DNA from: Bacteroidales bacterium
Lineage (GTDB): Bacteria; Bacteroidota; Bacteroidia; Bacteroidales; WCHB1-69
Length of the DNA: 64,000 bases
Assembly: GCA_016285085.1 (NCBI GenBank)
Contig: JAEEQA010000004.1
Location: 13,836-77,835 of the forward strand
Reading direction: 5' to 3'
The notes beneath the pieces were generated by a model that was not told the origin of the DNA, did no database searches, and saw only the letters and a program-made list of their open reading frames with translations. Positions 1 to 34,871 of this stretch are shown piece by piece. Each line of letters starts with the position of its first letter. Positions within the stretch are counted from its first letter, which is position 1. The translations under genes and the position numbers were made by a program.

Positions 1-327
1 CTCAAACGATTGACACCAGAAGGACACGAAGTGCTGGATGAGCAAATTGCCAACGAAGTGCAGGAGAATGCGCGGCGTGGTCCGTTCCGTTTCTCACAAT
101 GTGGCATAAAAGCAGGGGAAATGGTACAGTTTGTGGAGAATGCGACGATCCAAGCGAAAGTAATTGACGACAGGCATATCGAATATGATGGGCAAACGAC
201 ATCTCTGTCTGCGCTTGCTCAACAGATTAAGGGCTTTGACCATCCCGTACAGGGCACGCTGTGGTTTACTTATAAAGGCGTAAAACTTAATGACCTGCGA
301 TTGCAGTTGGAACAAAATAAACGGTGA
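1..327 (+). CDS. C-terminal fragment of a larger protein whose 5' end lies outside the window. Function is unassigned, possibly a restriction/defence-associated C-terminal module.
   Basis: The frame is open from base 1 (the ORF track starts it at a TTG at 10) and stops at 325-327. The tail '...FRFSQCGIKAGEMVQF...TTSLSALAQQIKG...GTLWFTYKGVKLNDL' resembles, from memory only, small C-terminal modules fused to R-M/GIY-YIG-type proteins. This is unverified. Confidence 0.35.
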   Translation, partial: LKRLTPEGHEVLDEQIANEVQENARRGPFRFSQCGIKAGEMVQFVENATIQAKVIDDRHIEYDGQTTSLSALAQQIKGFDHPVQGTLWFTYKGVKLNDLRLQLEQNKR

Positions 328-352
328 TTTTTTATTTGTATCTTGAATTAAA

Positions 353-922
353 ATGGCGAAAAAATCACAAAAAATATCAACCCCATTGGATGGAATAACA
401 GATGGCCATGCTTTTCAGCGCATTGTTGCTGAGTATTTCCGCTGTCTAAAAAAAGAAAACAATGGTTATTCCATATCAGATATTCATGTTGAAGATAGTG
501 GTATTGGTCCAGATGACTGTTGTGACATTTTGGTAGAATTCTTTTATGAAGATGTTATAGATAGTCACTCCAACAGGTGGGTGGTTGAATGCAAATGCCA
601 TAATAAAAATATTGGAGAACGAGATATAGATGGAAAAAACATTGAAATGATTTTGAAACAACATAACGCGATTGGATATTTACTTGTTTGTAAGCAAGAT
701 GCTTCATCTTCTTTAAAACGGAGGCTGAGTGGTTTAAACAAAAATGGGACAAATCGTTATGTGGTTTGGAATGGTCATCAGTTTTGGCATAAATGTGTAG
801 AATTCAAATCTTTACTAAAAGCATTTTTCCCATCTTATTACAACAAATACTTTATCCAAAATAATGATGAGCAAAGATTCAATCAGATTACGAGTGAATT
901 TGAAGAAAGGAGAAATAAATAA
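353..922 (+). CDS. PD-(D/E)xK (Mrr-like restriction endonuclease fold) nuclease-domain protein
   Basis: 189-aa ORF in a low-GC islet. The layout 'GHAFQRIVAEYF...GPDDCCDILVEF...RWVVECKCH...IGERDI' fits a D(58)...E(79)-x-K(81) nuclease core of Mrr_cat type. Its stop overlaps the next gene's ATG (TAATG). Confidence 0.55.
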   Translation: MAKKSQKISTPLDGITDGHAFQRIVAEYFRCLKKENNGYSISDIHVEDSGIGPDDCCDILVEFFYEDVIDSHSNRWVVECKCHNKNIGERDIDGKNIEMILKQHNAIGYLLVCKQDASSSLKRRLSGLNKNGTNRYVVWNGHQFWHKCVEFKSLLKAFFPSYYNKYFIQNNDEQRFNQITSEFEERRNK

Positions 923-1395
923 TGAAAAGAGCATTTGTTTCATATTCTATAGAAGATCGCAATTTACATCTGATAACCTTATTGTTAGAACACCTGCGAA
1001 GGAACAATTATGAGGTGTCTGTTTCAACACAATGGGGTGATTCGGATTTGAGAATTGCTAATGCTGATATTTTTATTGGAATAATTACCAACAACAGTGA
1101 TAGCATCGATTATGTAATAAAAGAATGGAAAACAGCACAAAGAAATTGTGTCCCGTATGTGCTTGTGGTTGAAAACGGCGTTAAAGTTGAAGATCCGGAA
1201 AGTCTATCATTTATCAGGTTTAATCGTTCCAATCCACAGGACGCCATAGATAGATTGTTCAAAATAAATAAGCCAGTTGCTAGTACCCATAAAAAGAAAA
1301 AAGATAATAATGACACTTTATCCGATGCCTTAATCGGAGTAGCTGTAGTTGCTGGTATCGCCGCTTTAATCAGTTTGTTAAGCAAAAACGAATAG
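922..1395 (+). CDS. Small TIR-like (TIR_2/DUF1863-like) domain protein with a C-terminal transmembrane anchor
   Basis: 157 aa. The N-terminus 'RAFVSYSIEDRN' and the motif 'S-I-D-Y-V-I-K-E(68)-W' match the bacterial TIR pattern FxSYxxxD ... SxxW/YVxxE. A Lys-rich linker is followed by the hydrophobic helix 'ALIGVAVVAGIAALISLL' at the extreme C-terminus. Low GC. Confidence 0.5.
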   Translation: MKRAFVSYSIEDRNLHLITLLLEHLRRNNYEVSVSTQWGDSDLRIANADIFIGIITNNSDSIDYVIKEWKTAQRNCVPYVLVVENGVKVEDPESLSFIRFNRSNPQDAIDRLFKINKPVASTHKKKKDNNDTLSDALIGVAVVAGIAALISLLSKNE

Positions 1396-1418: not shown

Positions 1419-1931
1419 ATGCCTCCCCTCCTCCCTATCCGCCCCGCAAGACTGCCGCAAGATGCTGAGAGAATCCTTGAGGTTTTCGAAGCCGCCAAGG
1501 GTATCATGGTGGCCGACGGCAATACGAAGCAATGGGTCAACGGTTACCCGTCGCTGGAGGCGGTGCAGGCAGACGTGGAGCGAGACGGCGCCTTCGTGAT
1601 GGAAGACAACGGCCGCATCGTGGCCTACTTCGCCTTCCTGCCCTCGCCCGAGCCCACCTACGGCACCATCTACCACGGGCAGTGGATCGACGACAGCCAG
1701 CCCTACCACGTCATCCACCGCATTGCCAGCTTTCCGGAAACGCACGGCATCTTCCACACTATCCTAGAGTTTGCCTTCGCCCGCGACCGCAACATCCGCA
1801 TCGACACCCACCGCGACAACCGCATCATGCAGCATAACATCCTTAAACACGGCTTCTCCTACTGCGGCATCATCCTCCTCGCCAACGGCGACGAACGGCT
1901 GGCGTTTCAGAAATTGAAAACTGAAAATTGA
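1419..1931 (+). CDS. GNAT-family N-acetyltransferase
   Basis: The ORF track gives 1395..1931; an ATG at 1419 (MPPLLPIRPA...) is the more plausible start. The layout is GNAT-like ('VMEDNGRIVAYFAF...', 'HRIAS...GIFHTILEFAF...IRIDTHRDNRIMQHNILKHGF'). GC jumps sharply to the genome-like level at about 1400. Confidence 0.7.
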   Translation: MPPLLPIRPARLPQDAERILEVFEAAKGIMVADGNTKQWVNGYPSLEAVQADVERDGAFVMEDNGRIVAYFAFLPSPEPTYGTIYHGQWIDDSQPYHVIHRIASFPETHGIFHTILEFAFARDRNIRIDTHRDNRIMQHNILKHGFSYCGIILLANGDERLAFQKLKTEN

Positions 1932-4651: not shown

Positions 4652-5563
4652 TTATTCCTGCGCCAGCGCAAGAACCTCTTCCTCGGTGAGGCCGGAAATT
4701 TCCGAAATCATGGCTGGGGCAAGATCTTTGGCGAGCATGTTCCGGACAAGGAGGCGGCGTGCCTCTTCAATACCTTCCGCTCTGCCTTCCTCTCTCCCTT
4801 CATCATGTGCCAGCCTGCGGTTGTACTCGATCGCGTCTTTCACATCGTCGTACTCCAAAATGCTTTTTTCATACTCTTCTTTTTCCATGTCGCTCAGTTT
4901 TGACAGTTTGCACTCATCGTACAACTCCCGGAATGTGGTGTCCGCAACGGGGATGTCTCTATCCGACATCCGCCACATGTTCTTGATTGCGTAGCACCAT
5001 TTCTCTCTTGCGCCGGGGAGCTGCCCGAAATCCGTTTGGGCGGCAAATTTAGTCAAATCTATCAGAACAAACGCCACTTTTTCAGAAAATTTTTGGTTTT
5101 CGTCGTCCCGCAATGTCACCCGCTGCATGAACCGGTCACTGCCCTTCAGGTCCGGCAGTTCGAAATCGACAAGGATGATGGAGATGACTTTCGGGAAGTT
5201 GTACTTTCGGTCGCCCTTTTTCAGCGAGTTGCTGATGCTGCGCGCCGAGTACGCGATGACCCTGTCACGGATGAATTCCTGACTTGCCTTCTGCATCTCC
5301 ACGATGATCCTGTCGTCCTTTTTTGTGCTGCAGAACACGTTGTAGATCAGCCGTTTTTCCTTCTCCAAGAGCCCGAGCTGTTCCGTCGGTTTGTAGTCTA
5401 TATCCTTGATAGTGCCTATATATTCCTTCAGAAATGCGTTCAGGAACCGGATGAGGTTATTCTTATGTTCCTCCGTACCGAAAATACGCTTGAAACCGAA
5501 GTCGGTTAACAGGTTGATGGTTGCGCTCTCGATGCGGGCACTTTCGATTTTTTCATCTTCCAT
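4652..5563 (-). CDS. Rpn/YhgA-like PD-(D/E)XK nuclease family protein ('putative transposase', PDDEXK_2-like)
   Basis: The ORF track gives 4652..5605; the ATG at 5563 (MEDEKIES...) lies downstream of a -7 box. Shows 'TDFGFKRIFG', the 'IVEMQK' nuclease core, and a C-terminal 'EGREEGRAEG' helix. Paralogous to 33966..34871. Confidence 0.75.
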   Translation of the reverse strand: MEDEKIESARIESATINLLTDFGFKRIFGTEEHKNNLIRFLNAFLKEYIGTIKDIDYKPTEQLGLLEKEKRLIYNVFCSTKKDDRIIVEMQKASQEFIRDRVIAYSARSISNSLKKGDRKYNFPKVISIILVDFELPDLKGSDRFMQRVTLRDDENQKFSEKVAFVLIDLTKFAAQTDFGQLPGAREKWCYAIKNMWRMSDRDIPVADTTFRELYDECKLSKLSDMEKEEYEKSILEYDDVKDAIEYNRRLAHDEGREEGRAEGIEEARRLLVRNMLAKDLAPAMISEISGLTEEEVLALAQE

Positions 5564-5602
5564 GATATGATTTTTTGAGTGAATTAAAACAGAAACTGTC
5601 CG

Positions 5603-5610
5603 CAAAGATA
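5603..5610 (-). promoter_or_regulatory. Putative -7 box TATCTTTG (minus strand)
   Basis: TAnnTTTG match 40 bp upstream of the start at 5563. The identical octamer precedes the paralog at 33966. Confidence 0.45.
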
Positions 5611-9297: not shown

Positions 9298-12200
9298 ATG
9301 AAGGAAAATATTTTCATCAAAAGACACGTGATGGCCTGCGCAATCGCGGTTGTCATCACTCTGATAGGATTCATCTGCATCACCACGCTGCCCATTGAGC
9401 AGTATCCTGACATCGCTCCTCCGACCGTGCGTGTGTCCACATCCTACACCGGCGCCGATGCAAACACCATCATGAAGTCGGTGGTGCAGCCGTTGGAGGA
9501 AAACATCAACGGCGTGCCCGGCATGACCTACATCACCAGCTCGGCTTCGTCCACGGGCGAAGTGTCCATCCAGGTCTATTTCGAGCAGGGCACCGACCCC
9601 GACCTCGCCGCTGTGAACGTGCAGAACCGCGTCAGCCGCGCCACGGCACTGCTGCCCTCCGAGGTGACAAAAGTGGGCGTGCAAGTGATGAAGCAGCAGA
9701 ACAACATCCTTCACATCGGTGCACTGAAAAGCACCGACGGCAAGTACGATGCCGACTTCATCTCCAACTACATCGACATCAACGTGCGGCCCCGCCTCAT
9801 GCGTATCACCGGCGTGGGCGATGTGATGTCACTCGGTAACACCTACGCCCTCCGCATCTGGCTGAAGCCCGACGTGATGGCGCAGTATGGACTGGAACCC
9901 AACGACGTGTTTGCGGCCATCGGCGGACAGAGCTTCGTCGCCGCCACGGGCTCCTTGGGCGAACAGAGCGAGAACGCCTACCAGTACTCGATGGAGTACA
10001 AAGGCACGCTCAAAAGCGTCGAGGAGTTCAACGACATCGTGCTGCGGACAAGCGACGGCGGCCACCTTCTGCACCTGAGCGATGTGGCAGACGTGGAAAT
10101 CGGTGCCATAAGCTATAACTTCACCTCCAACATCGACGGCAAGCCCGGCACCATTTACATGGTCTTCCAAGCCCCGGGCGCCAACGCCACAGAGGTGAAC
10201 GCCCGCATCAGCAAGCTCTATGAGGATCTGAAGCCGACGATGCCCGCCGGACTCGAATTCGTGATACTGGAGACCTCCGACGACTTCCTTTTCGCCGCCA
10301 TCCACAACGTGGTGGAAACTCTCGTCATTGCCATCATCCTTGTTATCCTGGTCGTTTATTTCTTCCTGCAAAGCTTCAAGGCGACAGTCATCCCCTCCCT
10401 GTCAATCATTGTGTCGATGTTGGGTACCTTTGCGATTGTGAAGGTTGCGGGATTCTCCCTGAATATATTGACATTGTTTGCCTTGGTGCTCGCCATCGGA
10501 ACGGTGGTGGATGACGCCATTGTGGTGGTGGAGGCGGTGATGGCGAAGATGGAGGGCGGCATATCGGACGCCCGCGAAGCCACCCGCCAGGCCATGAGCG
10601 ACGTCTCCGTGGCAGTCATCTCGTGTACCTTGGTCTTCATGGCCGTGTTCATCCCCGTGGCCTTCATGCCCGGCACGTCAGGATCGTTCTTCCTGCAGTT
10701 CGGTGTCACGCTGGCATCCGCCGTCGGTTTGTCGTGCGTGTCGGCTTTGACGCTGTGCCCTGCCCTGTGCGGCCTTATGATGCGCTACTCCGGCGACGAG
10801 CAGGAAAAGAAGAGCCTGAACTATTATGTCAAAAAAGCCTATACCGTCAGCTACAACGCCATTCTTAAAAAATACAAGAAGAGCGTCGGCGGTTTCATCA
10901 AGCGCCCGTGGGTTGCGGGGCTGTTGTTAGCCATCGCTGCCGTGCTGCTCGTTCTGGCCATGCGCGGTCTGCCGTCCGGCCTTGTGCCGCAGGAAGACCA
11001 GGGCGTTTTCTTCGCCGAAGTGCGTGCTCCGGAAGGATGCACCCTCCACGAAACAGAGGAGATTGTGAAAAAGGTGGAGGAAAAAATAAAGAAGATTCCC
11101 GAACTGGAAAGCTACGCCGTAGTCAACGGCTACGGCATGATGGCGAACCAGTCAGCCAGCTGCTACGCCACGCTCATCGTCCGCTTGAAGAACTGGGGTG
11201 ACCGTCCGGGCATGAACCACAACATCGTACTGGTGTACTCCCGTTTCGCCATAGACTGCATGGATATCAAGAACGCGATGGTCATTCCGTTCCAGATGCC
11301 GCAGGTGCCGGGTTACGGTTCCAACAGCTGCGTGAACCTTGTGCTGGAGGATCAGCTGGACCGTCCGATGACGGAGTTCAATGCGGATGCCAACAAATTC
11401 CTGAACAAACTGAACGAGCGGCCGGAAATCATGATGGCCATGTCCTCCTACTCCGAGCGCTTCCCGAAGTATCAAGTCAGCGTCGATGCCACGCAGTGCG
11501 ACCGCGCCGGCGTGTCGCCCGCAGCCGTGCTCCAGACCCTTGGGGCCTATTGCGGCGGCTCGTATATCGGCAACTTCAACCAGTTCGGCAAGGTCTATCG
11601 CATCATGGCGAACGCCTCTCCCGACTACCGCCTCGACCCCTCTGCACTCAACAACATTTTTGTCCGCGTGAGTGGCGGCAAGATGGCTCCCATCTCCGAG
11701 TTCGTCACGCTGAAAGAGATTGTCGGTTCGGCCTCGGTTGAACATTTCAACCTGTTCCAGAGCATCACCTGCGGTGTGATGACCGCCGGCGGTGCCTCGG
11801 AAGGCGACGCGCACCAGGCCATCGCCGAGGTGTTCAAGGAGACGATGCCCACCGGCTACAGTTATGAGTACGGCGGAATGTCGCGCGAAGTGGAGGAGAC
11901 CGCCGGTTCGAACGCCACCGCCCTCATCTACGTCATTTGCGTCATCCTCATTTACCTCATTTTGGCTTCCCTCTACAACTCGTGGTTCACACCGTGGGCC
12001 GTGTTGCTCTCCGTTCCCTTCGGCTTGCTGGGTTCGTTCGGCATCACGTGGATGGTCTCGCTGCTCCACCTGCCGGGAATGGAAAACAACATCTACCTGC
12101 AGACAGGTGTCATCATGCTCATCGGTTTGCTGGCGAAGACGGCCATCCTCATCACCGAGTTTGCTTCGGAGCGCCGGGCGCAGGGACTGAGCATCCGCGA

Positions 12201-32289: not shown

Positions 32290-32317
32290 GTAGAGACGCA
32301 AAATTTTGCGTCTCTAC
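32290..32317. repeat. Palindromic element copy 8 (centre CAAAATTTTG), between the TM1266-like gene and hydG
   Basis: Identical 28-mer to copy 7. Coordinates are anchored on ORF-track positions (hydG start 32245; ORF 32306; stop 32323). Confidence 0.9.
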
Positions 32318-32345
32318 AATTTTCAATTTTCCGTTTTCAATTTCG
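32318..32345 (-). repeat. Heptamer tract spanning the TM1266-like gene stop and abutting palindrome copy 8
   Basis: The minus strand reads GCGAAATTGAAAACGGAAAATTGAAAATT. It encodes the same C-terminal peptide, KLKTEN*, as the GNAT gene at 1911-1931. Confidence 0.75.
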
Positions 32346-32580
32346 CCACCATTGATTTCGCTTCCACGTCGGGCAGGCGGCCCAGTTTGCCGGTGAGGGC
32401 GCTGATCTGGTCGGTGGTGCCTTCAATGATGAGGGAGATGAAATGGATGCCCTTGTCGCGCAGGGGCAGTCCCTGGCGGGCCAAAACAAGGTCGGCGAAC
32501 TCCGAAAGAAGCTCGTTCACTTGGGGAACAATGTCGCGGTTGCTGATGAGGATGCTGATGCTTCCGATTCTCTTTTCCAT
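32323..32580 (-). CDS. TM1266-family putative iron-only hydrogenase system regulator (small ACT/RHH-like protein)
   Basis: 85 aa, immediately upstream of hydG on the same strand. 'ISILI.NR......VN.LL..F...I..R.G.P......I.LI.EG..D.I.AL.GKLG.L' matches my recollection of this family. Confidence 0.65.
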   Translation of the reverse strand: MEKRIGSISILISNRDIVPQVNELLSEFADLVLARQGLPLRDKGIHFISLIIEGTTDQISALTGKLGRLPDVEAKSMVAKLKTEN

Positions 32581-32673
32581 TAGATTTTCCTTTGGATTAG
32601 ACTGATTATTAATATTTTATAGCGATGTTTTGTTTTGGAGAAGAAACATCCGCTCCGCAAGAAAACAACGCGG

Positions 32674-32681
32674 CAAAAGTA
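32674..32681 (-). promoter_or_regulatory. Putative -7 box TACTTTTG (minus strand) for the TM1266-hydG unit
   Basis: TAnnTTTG match 94 bp upstream of the start at 32580. Confidence 0.35.
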
Positions 32682-32788
32682 CAAAAAAGTTTTGGTAACT
32701 TGCCCCACTGAAAATGGAAAGGTTGACAAATTATATCGAACCATGTTTTCCCCCTTTTTATAATGATTGCTCTGCGAATTAATGTTGA

Positions 32789-33049
32789 TTATAGAAGAAA
32801 AAAACATAATGCTATAAGCGATAAAAAATACAGAATTGCAATTACTTCGAATAGCACTGCCCGCCGAAACAATTGAACATAGCGTACTTTATTATTAACA
32901 TCGTTACAATTCTCTAAAAATAATTTGAATTTTCTATACACCGACAAAGTCGCTAAACTATTGACGGAAATCCCATTTTCACGCAGGCAATTAATCAATT
33001 TATGGTAATAGAAACCTGAAAAATAATAAGGACAAGCCATAAAAAGCAC
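32789..33049 (-). CDS. Hypothetical small protein in the low-GC islet (doubtful)
   Basis: 86-aa ORF with a non-ATG first codon and a C-terminal hydrophobic segment. No family recognised. Confidence 0.2.
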   Translation of the reverse strand: MLFMACPYYFSGFYYHKLINCLRENGISVNSLATLSVYRKFKLFLENCNDVNNKVRYVQLFRRAVLFEVIAILYFLSLIALCFFLL

Positions 33050-33092
33050 ACTACTATTGGAATAATGAAAAAAGTCTGCATGGTGTCGTTTT

Positions 33093-33710
33093 CTATCGTT
33101 TATTGATACAATGTATTATTTTCGGTTTTTTATAGCGACAAATCTTGTGTGGTGAACGATGATTGCAATTCCTTTCACACTTGGGCATTTTCCCCTGTGG
33201 ATCTATTGCTACATTTGGATGAAATAAATAATAGTTTCTAATTGCATCTATTGTTGTTTGTTTTACATTTTGAAATCTGTTCTTTACCCAGTGGACGACA
33301 TCTTCGACATGGTGCTTTTTTCTACAGCAGTTGAGCCCGATAAAAGCATAAATGGTATCATTGTACGGAATAATAATCATTGAAACTTTTCCATAAACAC
33401 TTGGAGTAACAACATGATATATATGCTTATCAATAAAAAGAAGCGTGTCTTGTTCTGATGTCAATTTATTGTCGACATTTTCAATATCATACATGTAATA
33501 GATACCGTGTTTGATTCCTGTTCTATACTTTTTATTTATACCCCGAAACTCTTTGTCAATGCTTTTTTGAAAAGAGTCTCTCGGCCCATATAGGGTCATT
33601 TTTGACAATGTGTCCTGTGCCAAACAGGAATACTGCATGGAAAAAACAATTATTAGAAAAACTGCCATACTCTTATTTAGCATGATAAATCTCCCGGTGT
33701 GACTTTTCAT
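33093..33710 (-). CDS. Hypothetical secreted protein (low-GC islet)
   Basis: The ORF track gives 33093..33737. The ATG at 33710 is 17 bp downstream of a -7 box and gives the signal-like 'MKSHTGRFIMLNKSMAVFLIIVFSMQYSCLAQ'. No family recognised. Confidence 0.45.
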   Translation of the reverse strand: MKSHTGRFIMLNKSMAVFLIIVFSMQYSCLAQDTLSKMTLYGPRDSFQKSIDKEFRGINKKYRTGIKHGIYYMYDIENVDNKLTSEQDTLLFIDKHIYHVVTPSVYGKVSMIIIPYNDTIYAFIGLNCCRKKHHVEDVVHWVKNRFQNVKQTTIDAIRNYYLFHPNVAIDPQGKMPKCERNCNHRSPHKICRYKKPKIIHCINKR

Positions 33711-33726
33711 AAAGCAAATTTGAGCG

Positions 33727-33734
33727 CAAACATA
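33727..33734 (-). promoter_or_regulatory. Putative -7 box TATGTTTG (minus strand)
   Basis: TAnnTTTG match 17 bp upstream of the start at 33710. Confidence 0.4.
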
Positions 33735-33924
33735 CAAATCTTTTGTTTACGTTTGCACGATACCATTGCAGAAAAAAAGTTTTCAACATGCCCCAATTCC
33801 GTACATCGCCCTTTTCAACAACCTGTTTTCCTCAAAATCATACCACAAAAGGAATAAAATCCGCAATATTTTAACCTTCTAAAAACCAATAAATTGACCT
33901 CTTGACAAGCGGTTGCCCATATCG

Positions 33925-33932
33925 TATCTTTG
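33925..33932 (+). promoter_or_regulatory. Putative -7 box TATCTTTG
   Basis: TAnnTTTG match 34 bp upstream of the ATG at 33966. Same octamer as at 5603-5610. Confidence 0.45.
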
Positions 33933-33965
33933 CCATCGCTATTCATTAATTAAATCATAAAGTTT

Positions 33966-34871
33966 ATGGCAAAGAACAAAAACATTTTCCAGATTCCTAC
34001 CACGGATTTCACTTTCAAGAAAATCTTTGGCACAGAGGCGAACAAACGTTTCCTCATCGACTTCCTCAACAGCTTCGTATCCAAGTACACGGGCATCATT
34101 ACAGATGTAACCTATTTGCCCACAGAACAGTATGGACTGAACGACACCGAACGGCGGGCAGTGTTCGACCTGCTGTGTGTGGACCAGAACCAGCAGAATT
34201 TCATCATTGAGATGCAGCGTGCGAACCAGCCGGACTTTGCCGAACGTTCGATATTCTACCTCAGCCGTGCCATCAGCGCCAGTATGGAGAAAGGCGGTTA
34301 CGACTACCACATTCTCCCGTCCTATTCCGTGAACCTTCTCGATTTTGAATTGCCGGAGTACAAAAATTCCGGAGAATGCTTCCAAGTGCTGTTTCTCAAA
34401 GACCAAGAAAATCGAATCCTCACGACAAAAGTGGCAATATTTTACATAAAATTGCGTAATTTTGCCGCCGAAAGCCCCGAACTGACGGAAGGGATGCGAA
34501 ATTGGCTGGATTTGTTGAAGAACATGCCGAAAATGGACGACAGCGACTACGAGAGGCAGAAACCGCTGTTCAGGGAGCTTCTGGACGTATGTCGAATTTC
34601 AAAATTGAACACTATGGAAAAAGAGAATTACCGCAAGAGTGTGCTTGAGTACGAGGACGTGCAACGCGCTGTCTCCTATGCCAAGGAACTGGCTTTTGAG
34701 GATGGAATAAAGAAAGGAAGAGAGGAAGGAAGAGAGGAAGGAAGAGAGGAAGGAAGAGAGGAAGCCCTTGTCAACACGGCTAAAAAATTATTGACAATGG
34801 GTCTTTCCATTGAGGATATTGTGAAAGCGACAGGGTTGAACGAAGATCAGGTGCGGGAAATTGCAAGTTAG
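33966..34871 (+). CDS. Rpn/YhgA-like PD-(D/E)XK nuclease family protein ('putative transposase', PDDEXK_2-like)
   Basis: 301 aa. Shows 'TDFTFKKIFG', 'IIEMQR', and a C-terminal (GREE)x4 plus helix. Paralog of 4652..5563. Confidence 0.75.
   Translation: MAKNKNIFQIPTTDFTFKKIFGTEANKRFLIDFLNSFVSKYTGIITDVTYLPTEQYGLNDTERRAVFDLLCVDQNQQNFIIEMQRANQPDFAERSIFYLSRAISASMEKGGYDYHILPSYSVNLLDFELPEYKNSGECFQVLFLKDQENRILTTKVAIFYIKLRNFAAESPELTEGMRNWLDLLKNMPKMDDSDYERQKPLFRELLDVCRISKLNTMEKENYRKSVLEYEDVQRAVSYAKELAFEDGIKKGREEGREEGREEGREEALVNTAKKLLTMGLSIEDIVKATGLNEDQVREIAS
34716..34763 (+). repeat. Perfect 12-bp tandem repeat (GGAAGAGAGGAA x4) encoding (GREE)4
   Basis: Read directly from the sequence. It lies within the Rpn-like CDS. 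The paralog has a diverged single version (EGREEGRAEG). Confidence 0.9.

Follow-up and report, generated by a model that had tools for sequence, protein, structure and literature searches.

A candidate defence cassette of Bacteroidota coupling a predicted tail-anchored TIR protein to a stand-alone Mrr-type nuclease domain

Bacteria, plants, and animals all rely on TIR enzymes as a central part of immunity; to our knowledge, each bacterial TIR studied so far is either a soluble sensor or an effector domain joined to one. As a working rule, a TIR gene standing beside a cell-killing enzyme in a defence island is read as Thoeris-type signalling, and Yirmiya et al. (2025) count 29 putative Thoeris types, DNase effectors included (bioRxiv 10.64898/2025.12.03.692087). 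The nearest published frames also include Rst_2TM_1TM_TIR, a system of the P2-like phage AC1 hotspot (Rousset et al. 2022, PMC9122126), as well as E. coli TIR systems with transmembrane (TM) partners. The locus considered here is a pair of genes, hereafter A and B, near the beginning of a 64,000-nucleotide stretch of contig JAEEQA010000004.1 (assembly GCA_016285085.1, positions 13,836 to 77,835, forward strand) from a Bacteroidales bacterium; this whole stretch is called the window, and coordinates refer to it unless given with an L number, which denotes a related locus. A is predicted to encode an Mrr-type nuclease and B a small TIR protein anchored in the membrane at its C-terminus, a combination that a preliminary description, made from the letters of the window, could not place in any described system. 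A full-text literature search likewise found no description of a C-terminally membrane-anchored TIR paired with an Mrr-type nuclease.

The adjacency of A and B is obligate. About 49 related loci were fetched, and the pairing counts cover the usable loci. With B as bait, A was found directly upstream in 13 genome loci and in 5 loci from an exact-protein look-up (18/18), and with A as bait, B was found directly downstream in all 16 metagenome loci that extend far enough. The arrangement is also kept in 11 loci fetched later, and the pairing holds to about 33% identity. Hence the pair, proposed from one genome, is confirmed to co-occur elsewhere whichever gene serves as bait. The stop of A and the start of B overlap in 31 of 34 loci, as ATGA in 26 and as TAATG in 5, and are 1 base apart in the remaining 3. 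In the window the junction is TAATG, with one base common to the TAA of A and the ATG of B, and both open reading frames (ORFs) lie where they had first been placed (Table 1). Clustering of flanking ORFs gave no third gene common to more than 4 of 15 loci, and DNA similarity between loci, as seen by blastn, runs from about 332-348, that is, 5-20 bases before A, to 1395-1399 at the stop of B. The ratio of nonsynonymous to synonymous substitution rates (dN/dS) is 0.1-0.25 for both genes, a sign of purifying selection; given also the numerous clusters of B described below, neither is a chance ORF.

The first gene had been described as carrying a restriction-endonuclease-like core with a D...ExK motif, and this holds up well. 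The Pfam family Mrr_cat scores 19.3 bits against A of the window (gathering score 21) and is matched by all 24 aligned relatives, with a best expect value (E) of 2e-9. The AlphaFold (AF2) model of A has a mean predicted local distance difference test score (pLDDT) of 81.6, and its best match among solved structures in Foldseek is the C-terminal catalytic domain of MspJI (E=1.9e-5, about 160 aligned columns of 189 residues), followed by AspBHI (4.6e-4) and, far weaker, VC1899 and Cap4; a profile search against the structures in the PDB found no relatives. E27 and the presumptive catalytic residues D58, E79, and K81 are invariant in the 24 relatives, and a distant clade in Saprospiraceae has D...QxK, the classical Mrr variant. 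Neither an Mrr_N winged helix nor an SRA-like domain was found in A, in which the nuclease domain takes up nearly all 189 residues. Both sequence and model therefore depict A as a nuclease domain and little else. Its isoelectric point (pI), about 6.1, was judged uninformative. Against the PADLOC models, distant relatives of A give weak matches to the N-terminal Mrr domain of LmuA (3.3e-7), PDC-M58A (7e-6), and PDC-S02 (1.6e-5). In a sister assembly, the gene is called with 178 instead of 189 amino acids (aa).

For B, the Pfam family TIR_2 scores 27.9 bits (gathering score 28) and is matched by 24 of 25 relatives, in which no deoxyribosyltransferase-type Pfam family reaches E<=0.01. The AlphaFold model has a pLDDT of 81-92 over the TIR domain, to residue ~110-115, and low values in the linker and tail. 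Its Foldseek matches are headed by DNPH1/Rcl (1.6e-4) and the SARM1 TIR (2e-4), with the plant TIRs of RRS1 and RPS4 and with MilB scoring equally; a TIR protein of Bacillus cereus (8fz9) is a weaker match at 2e-3, and a profile search against solved structures in the PDB found no relatives. The predicted structure thus fits the TIR/nucleoside-hydrolase fold, within which the sequence profile singles out TIR. Within the close family, S7-Y8-S9, E68, E84, and R102 are invariant, and G53 is conserved similarly to E84 and R102. E68 aligns with the canonical catalytic glutamate of verified Thoeris TIRs, is retained in 110 of 128 distant representatives, and is replaced by aspartate in 11 more. Accordingly, profile searches support both of the folds proposed for the pair, TIR in 24/25 relatives of B and PD-(D/E)xK, through Mrr_cat, in 24/24 relatives of A. 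NCBI names B "TIR domain-containing protein" and A either "restriction endonuclease" or hypothetical.

B belongs to a large family, comprising at least 279 clusters at 90% identity; among 1.84 billion representatives at 50% identity, 325 match at E<=1e-3 and 133 at E<=1e-10. Nearly all members are 147-175 aa long (150-165 aa for almost all of the 50% representatives) and align with the profile over its full length. For B of the window, the recorded protein (P0016) has 126 aa from an internal start and is 100% identical over 80% coverage. Since the conserved first strand, FVSYS, falls within the 31 residues that this version lacks, the true start is taken to be the ATG at 922. Two larger proteins, P0250 (520 aa) and P0287 (1396 aa), are nSTAND3 nucleoside triphosphatases (NTPases) that begin with a B-like TIR (E=3e-17 and 1.4e-11, respectively). 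In both, the TIR is followed by a domain of ~190 aa with a GTPD...VE(Y/I)TTQ motif, which on inspection by eye resembles a restriction enzyme. That these proteins are A-B fusions was considered and rejected, since the ~190-aa domain shows no detectable homology to A in hmmsearch or hhalign, nor to any PDB chain.

The rest of B had been described as a Lys-rich linker and a single C-terminal TM helix after a TIR-like domain of ~100 aa, and the wider family repeats this plan. In 124 of 126 close relatives, a hydrophobic 19-mer with a Kyte-Doolittle value of ~2.6 ends 3-7 residues short of the C-terminus. Among the 128 distant representatives, 98 have such a helix, and most of the others have weaker segments at the same place. 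In an alignment of 237 sequences, the entropy of the helix is 1.74 bits (1.60 for its core, GIAALISLL), compared with 2.04 bits for the TIR domain; the variable parts are the linker (2.89 bits) and the loop of residues 36-47 (2.91 bits). Helix residues G145, A147, A148, L149, L152, and L153 are invariant. Given that a passive anchor needs only hydrophobicity and that this helix is constrained as strongly as the enzyme core, the conservation of its sequence points to specific helix-helix packing.

The two genes do not always travel with the same alleles. Across pairs of loci, the identity of A correlates with that of B (r=0.74), but there are clear mosaics: A and B are 60% and 92% identical between L019 and L024, and 24% and 47% between L045 and L049, while the window and L026 share 56% in A, 82% in B, and 94% in the PDC-S57 parts. 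In sliding-window comparison, DNA identity is 52-70% before the A/B junction and 88-100% after it, which puts the recombination break precisely at the junction. A is the faster-changing and swappable partner. In three loci, A appears disrupted with B intact, by an internal deletion (L005, 7181-7653), by a stop codon standing in frame at the very E/Q position of ExK (L016, ~9479-9985), and by a frameshift (L017, 1793-2231), and in one, B appears frameshifted (L035, 371-801). This asymmetry of three against one was set aside, because the numbers are too small and, all four being metagenome assemblies, errors of assembly or sequencing are possible.

The loci come from Bacteroidales, Chitinophagales, Flavobacteriales, and Saprospiraceae, and all labelled loci but two are from Bacteroidota. 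One of the two, a complete genome (L001/L013, CP034120.1), is titled Glaciecola amylolytica, a gammaproteobacterial name; Por_Secre_tail and SprB genes adjoin the pair there, and, since these are typical of Bacteroidota, the label is doubtful. The other, a metagenome-assembled genome (MAG) with P0069 (L004, JAFXCG010000016.1), is labelled Clostridia, also doubtfully. If both labels are wrong, the family would be exclusive to Bacteroidota. B had no matches in IMG/VR, GenBank plasmids, GenBank phages, or PHROGs, and A had none in IMG/VR, GenBank plasmids, or PHROGs, GenBank phages having been searched with B only.

Recognised defence genes lie within a few kilobases (kb) of the pair in at least 22 of ~26 independent neighbourhoods, a plain tally of neighbourhoods without a formal enrichment statistic. 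In nearly all loci, the pair is at the 3' end of other defence operons, and in most it begins 3-100 bp after a gene of the same direction. On the downstream side, the neighbours include HsdS, RhuM/PDC-S05, HNH, PDC-M48B, AbiH, and YhcG. A non-defence neighbour, NuoF-like, was seen only in Saprospiraceae loci; L015 and L016 are outside the annotated set. The proposal that the pair is a candidate defence module is thus backed by its genomic company, and A and B very probably do constitute a phage-defence module.

How such a module would work is a more tentative matter. The favoured reading, to which a rough probability of 0.4 is given, takes A and B as a two-enzyme cassette of Thoeris-like order that is autonomous, has moved horizontally, and is found almost only in Bacteroidota; a defensive role, NAD+ (nicotinamide adenine dinucleotide) as the substrate, the order from sensor to TIR to nuclease, and the membrane topology are what we infer here. 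In this scheme, B would be inserted into the inner membrane through the helix at its C-terminus and expose its TIR domain to the cytoplasm, and A would be co-translated with it. Upon infection, the TIR domains would assemble, aided by specific packing of the conserved membrane helices, and would use E68 to cleave NAD+ into an ADP-ribose-derived product. This product, or the assembled TIR itself, would switch on the otherwise restrained nuclease A, which would then degrade DNA and halt phage replication, probably at the expense of the cell. The working rule for Thoeris types, with their putative DNase effectors, speaks for this order. NucC sets a precedent for the last step, as a small nucleotide switches on this restriction-fold nuclease with no separate sensor domain involved. 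Moreover, A alleles that are only 60% identical working with B alleles that are 92% identical are easier to accommodate with a diffusible signal or a conserved interface.

Several observations weigh against a Thoeris-like order. Known ThsB proteins are soluble, whereas B is predicted to be membrane-anchored, and the profile of B matches verified Thoeris TIRs only weakly, with 15.9 bits at best. PADLOC v2.0.0 has no model that matches A or B, and gives no Thoeris match for either of them or for distant relatives. Strict 1:1 genes and translational coupling fit a stoichiometric complex better than a diffusible signal. A B-like TIR stands at the N-terminus of the two STAND NTPases P0250 and P0287, a position in which a TIR is thought to act as an NAD+-depleting effector. 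Finally, no ligand-binding domain (SLOG, Macro, SAVED, or CARF) is recognisable in A, in which only Mrr_cat was found, although a cryptic ligand pocket may exist at an oligomer interface of A.

A SPARTA-like arrangement comes close behind the Thoeris-like order, which remains the first choice. Under this alternative, which is possible but on the improbable side, A would bind, and perhaps nick, invading DNA near the membrane and oligomerise, thereby clustering the TIRs, and depletion of NAD+ would abort the infection. The stop/start overlap and the strict 1:1 pairing suggest a heteromeric complex of this kind; a small-molecule sensor domain was found in neither A nor B; and the TIR occupies the effector position in the two nSTAND3 proteins. 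The best structural matches of A are catalytic domains of modification-dependent enzymes, and MspJI-type domains act as oligomers on DNA. The fast diversification and frequent swapping of A would also be expected of the component that meets the invader. However, the catalytic triad of A is intact, making it no mere sensor; A has no DNA-recognition domain, and its pI is near neutral rather than basic; and the fact that diverged alleles of A are shuffled against a single allele of B fits poorly with a tight, co-evolved interface.

A narrower proposal, somewhat less likely still, is that the conserved helix of the tail-anchored TIR is itself the switch, such that its packing in the inner membrane, set off when a phage enters or the envelope is stressed, would bring the TIR active sites together. 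The TIR product, or the assembly itself, would then directly activate a minimal Mrr nuclease that has no signal-binding domain. If it were true, sensor and executor would both be sited at the membrane, distinct from all Thoeris types based on a soluble ThsB.

It is unlikely that B instead holds a toxic A inactive at the membrane, with infection or loss of the island freeing A and the TIR serving mainly as a scaffold. Translational coupling of the two genes would suit such restraint, a stand-alone nuclease without its own regulator would presumably be toxic, and A is disrupted with B intact in L005, L016, and L017. Yet the wider family keeps E68, E84, and R102 with few or no exceptions, which favours catalysis over scaffolding, and the frameshifted B of L035 leaves the count of three against one without weight, all the more because errors of MAG assembly could account for the disruptions.

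A similarly small chance is given to the pair being an accessory, that is, an extra effector arm of the NTPase system upstream (LmuB, PtuA-like, HerA, or Res/HsdR). In most loci, the pair does lie 3-100 bp after a co-directional NTPase gene and has no recognised promoter of its own. The gene upstream is a Type III Res in L008, L009, L011, and L033, HsdR in L010/L031, HerA of SIR2-HerA in L038, a PtuA/AriA-like ATPase in L019, L037, and L002, and an HD-CE/HATPase protein, beside a Gabija-like pair, in L047. The pair follows an LmuB or SMC-like ATPase in at least four contexts, which are LmuB of complete Lamassu (L012/L039, L032, L049) and an SMC-like ATPase beside GmrSD on a mobilisable element (L045), and a block containing A and B is far better conserved between L039 and L049 (82/64/56% identity) than LmuB and LmuA (31/26%). 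Nevertheless, the upstream partners are of many unrelated kinds, among them Type II methylases (L020, L034), KwaB inside a Type I operon (L014), PDC-S57 (window, L006, L024), and a NuoF-like housekeeping gene; similarity of DNA between loci is limited to A and B; and defence islands often have an NTPase at the end of an operon in any case. In L001, moreover, 470 bp of intergenic DNA precede the pair and the neighbouring gene is divergent, which means that it can be its own transcription unit. The block shared by L039 (4305-9161) and L049 (3340-8171) consists of A, B, and a 231-aa ORF, identical at 82, 64, and 56%, and is followed by HNH; the LmuB and CTD4-type LmuA upstream are 31% and 26% identical. 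Either this block entered two highly dissimilar Lamassu operons at one and the same place, or it evolves far more slowly than they do.

Least probable of all is that B is a DNPH1/MilB-like N-glycosidase destroying the hydroxymethylated pyrimidine nucleotides of phages (DNPH1 and MilB act on hydroxymethyl-dUMP, hmdUMP, and hydroxymethyl-CMP, hmCMP) and that A cuts modified phage DNA, a view encouraged by the top structural matches of B (DNPH1/Rcl at 1.6e-4, and MilB) and of A (the modification-dependent MspJI and AspBHI), but opposed by the facts that TIR and DNPH1/MilB are one fold, with Foldseek scores equal to those of SARM1 and the plant TIRs, that by sequence only TIR_2 is matched (24/25) and no deoxyribosyltransferase-type family at E<=0.01, that the N-terminal FxSYS motif of B is TIR-like, and that A has no SRA-like domain such as reads the modified base in MspJI.

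The features of the locus are collected in Table 1. The GC content is 0.28-0.38 across 300-1400, rises to 0.60-0.64 at 1400-1800, directly past the stop of B, and is ~0.45-0.49 in the partial ORF at 1-327. The pair had been described as an AT-rich stretch between GC-rich flanks; this is right for the right flank and wrong for the left one, which is the 3' end of another island gene. Scans around the two genes gave no convincing repeats, RNA families, tRNA, terminator, or sigma-70-like promoter, and the promoter scan found no site in the leader at 328..352. Flanking repeats were found only around the whole island, not around the two-gene cassette.

Table 1. Coordinates of the cassette and its immediate surroundings in the window.
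Feature	Position	Strand	Basis or remark
3' end of gene U, PDC-S57, T5orf172/GIY-YIG-like, RAMA-like C-terminus	1..327	+	PADLOC PDLC05043, E=1.1e-33
Short A/T-rich leader	328..352	+	blastn similarity to other cassette copies starts at ~332-348
Gene A, predicted stand-alone Mrr-type PD-(D/E)xK nuclease domain, 189 aa	353..922	+	ORF check; Mrr_cat, AF2, Foldseek
Gene A, predicted catalytic codons D58, E79, K81	524-526, 587-589, 593-595	+	invariant in relatives
Gene B, predicted tail-anchored TIR protein, 157 aa	922..1395	+	ORF check; TIR_2
Gene B, TIR domain, aa 1-115	922..1266	+	candidate catalytic Glu E68 at 1123-1125; E84, R102 invariant
Gene B, variable Lys-rich linker, aa 116-133	1267..1320	+	entropy 2.89 bits, low model confidence
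Gene B, predicted C-terminal TM helix, aa 134-154, core GIAALISLL	1321..1383	+	3 residues remain after the helix
Right copy of 117-bp direct repeat, right edge of island	1419..1535	+	L042 self-blast
GNAT-like gene downstream of B	1419-1931	+	first 39 codons are the repeat

The surroundings of the pair in this genome can be followed beyond the window through L042, which is the same locus (99.96% identical over 9 kb, with base 1 of the window at base 8583 of L042). There, the low-GC stretch reaches ~7 kb upstream of the window, with a GC content of 0.33-0.37 in the island genes (0.45 in PDC-S57) against 0.55-0.59 in the flanks. The order is a beta-lactamase-like host gene, a 753-aa Type I methylase (PADLOC MTase_I, E=0), an S subunit, a PtuA-like ATPase (595 aa), a 202-aa ORF, PDC-S57, A, B, and the GNAT-like gene; no HsdR was found within reach of the island in L042. 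The pair is the tail of a larger foreign island of ~8.3 kb and not an islet between native flanks. The partial gene at 1-327, which the preliminary description suspected of belonging to the same island, indeed does so: it is a PDC-S57 gene (E=1e-33 for the part in the window) that in full encodes 222 aa (E=2.8e-99; Pfam T5orf172/MUG113). This gene U is common only to close relatives (L006, L022-L027) and not to the other loci of the pair, and is therefore part of the island but not of the conserved pair.

Self-blast of L042 revealed a direct repeat of 117 bp, 94% identical, that brackets the island (1617-1733 and 10001-10117). The repeat is the first 39 codons of the GNAT-like gene, and its left copy is a truncated start of that gene behind the native promoter, which looks like the footprint of an insertion or exchange of the island; no integrase was found in the island. 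A promoter-like stretch of 71 bp containing TATCTTTG is duplicated before the methylase gene of the island (L042 1498-1568 and 1904-1972), and in L043 (10474-10622) the same 5' fragment of the GNAT gene follows B at a different genomic site. A layout recurring in Bacteroidales (L042 2062-8170; L002, L037, L043) consists of a 753-aa Type I methylase with HSDR_N_2, an S subunit, a variable ORF, a PtuA/AriA-like ATPase, another variable ORF, A, and B, with no HsdR found within 8-16 kb in these loci; its methylase, ATPase, and S subunit also match the PADLOC models mad2, mad3, and mad5 of MADS. Elsewhere in the window, a second low-GC patch at 32300-33950 (GC content of 0.39 over 32-34 kb) consists of long non-coding stretches and a minus-strand ORF of 214 aa (33093-33737) whose N-terminus is hydrophobic. 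The window also holds two paralogous PDDEXK_2 (Rpn-like) genes (4652-5605 and 33966-34871), one of which adjoins this patch.

If the cassette is defensive, it would add a membrane-sited TIR system to the known set and offer a very small and tractable pair (346 aa in total) for studying how TIR assembly is controlled, and it would fill a gap in Bacteroidota, whose defence repertoire is poorly covered by tools that were based on Proteobacteria and Firmicutes. The restraint and activation of a nuclease that has no sensor domain could also be learned from it.

Among described nucleases, A shares the fold of the catalytic domain and the D...(E/Q)xK motif with MspJI, AspBHI, and Mrr, modification-dependent restriction enzymes of Type IV/IIM, but it lacks their N-terminal DNA-reading domain and is always coupled to a TIR protein. 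NucC is alike in being a restriction-fold nuclease with no separate sensor domain, a precedent for the switching on of A; however, A gave no sequence or structural match to NucC, which responds to cyclic tri-adenylate and not to TIR products. With Lamassu-Mrr, the cassette has in common that A of the distant clade matches the N-terminal nuclease part of the LmuA model (3.3e-7) and that the pair often follows lmuB. In contrast, A lacks the C-terminal domain of LmuA, and most loci have neither LmuB nor LmuC: LmuB adjoins the pair in only 4-5 of ~26 contexts, where Lamassu has its own CTD4-type LmuA.

Rst_2TM_1TM_TIR resembles the cassette in that a TIR protein and membrane-spanning helices meet in a small defence operon (PMC9122126). 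It differs in having three genes with TM partners and no nuclease and in residing in enterobacterial prophages, and its PADLOC model misses B, whose only conserved partner is the soluble nuclease A and not the 2TM and 1TM proteins. In SPARTA (TIR-APAZ with a short Argonaute), TIR-STING, TIR-SAVED, and TIR-NLR (Avs), a TIR NADase is activated by induced oligomerisation once a nucleic-acid-binding partner or a STAND module has sensed the invader, and B-like TIRs are indeed found at the start of the two nSTAND3 proteins. The cassette, however, has no APAZ, Argonaute, SAVED, STING, or STAND component, and its partner is a bare Mrr-type nuclease.

The closest likeness in plan is to Thoeris (types I-XI), in which, as here, a two-gene unit in defence islands combines a small TIR bearing the canonical catalytic glutamate with a cell-damaging enzyme; the putative "DNase" configurations of Thoeris (bioRxiv 10.64898/2025.12.03.692087) may include the present family. 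The cassette departs from Thoeris in that its TIR is predicted to be tail-anchored by a sequence-constrained helix, its partner A has no signal-binding domain, and the two genes are strictly 1:1 and translationally coupled. No match to an already named system was found, the PADLOC v2 models matching neither protein. Taken together, the cassette is a TIR-plus-effector variant that is not categorically new and that matches no named system tested. What sets it apart is that the TIR has a tail anchor under sequence constraint and that its partner is a nuclease domain alone, in a family of more than 100 diverse clusters in which a 115-aa anchored TIR is paired with a bare restriction-type nuclease.

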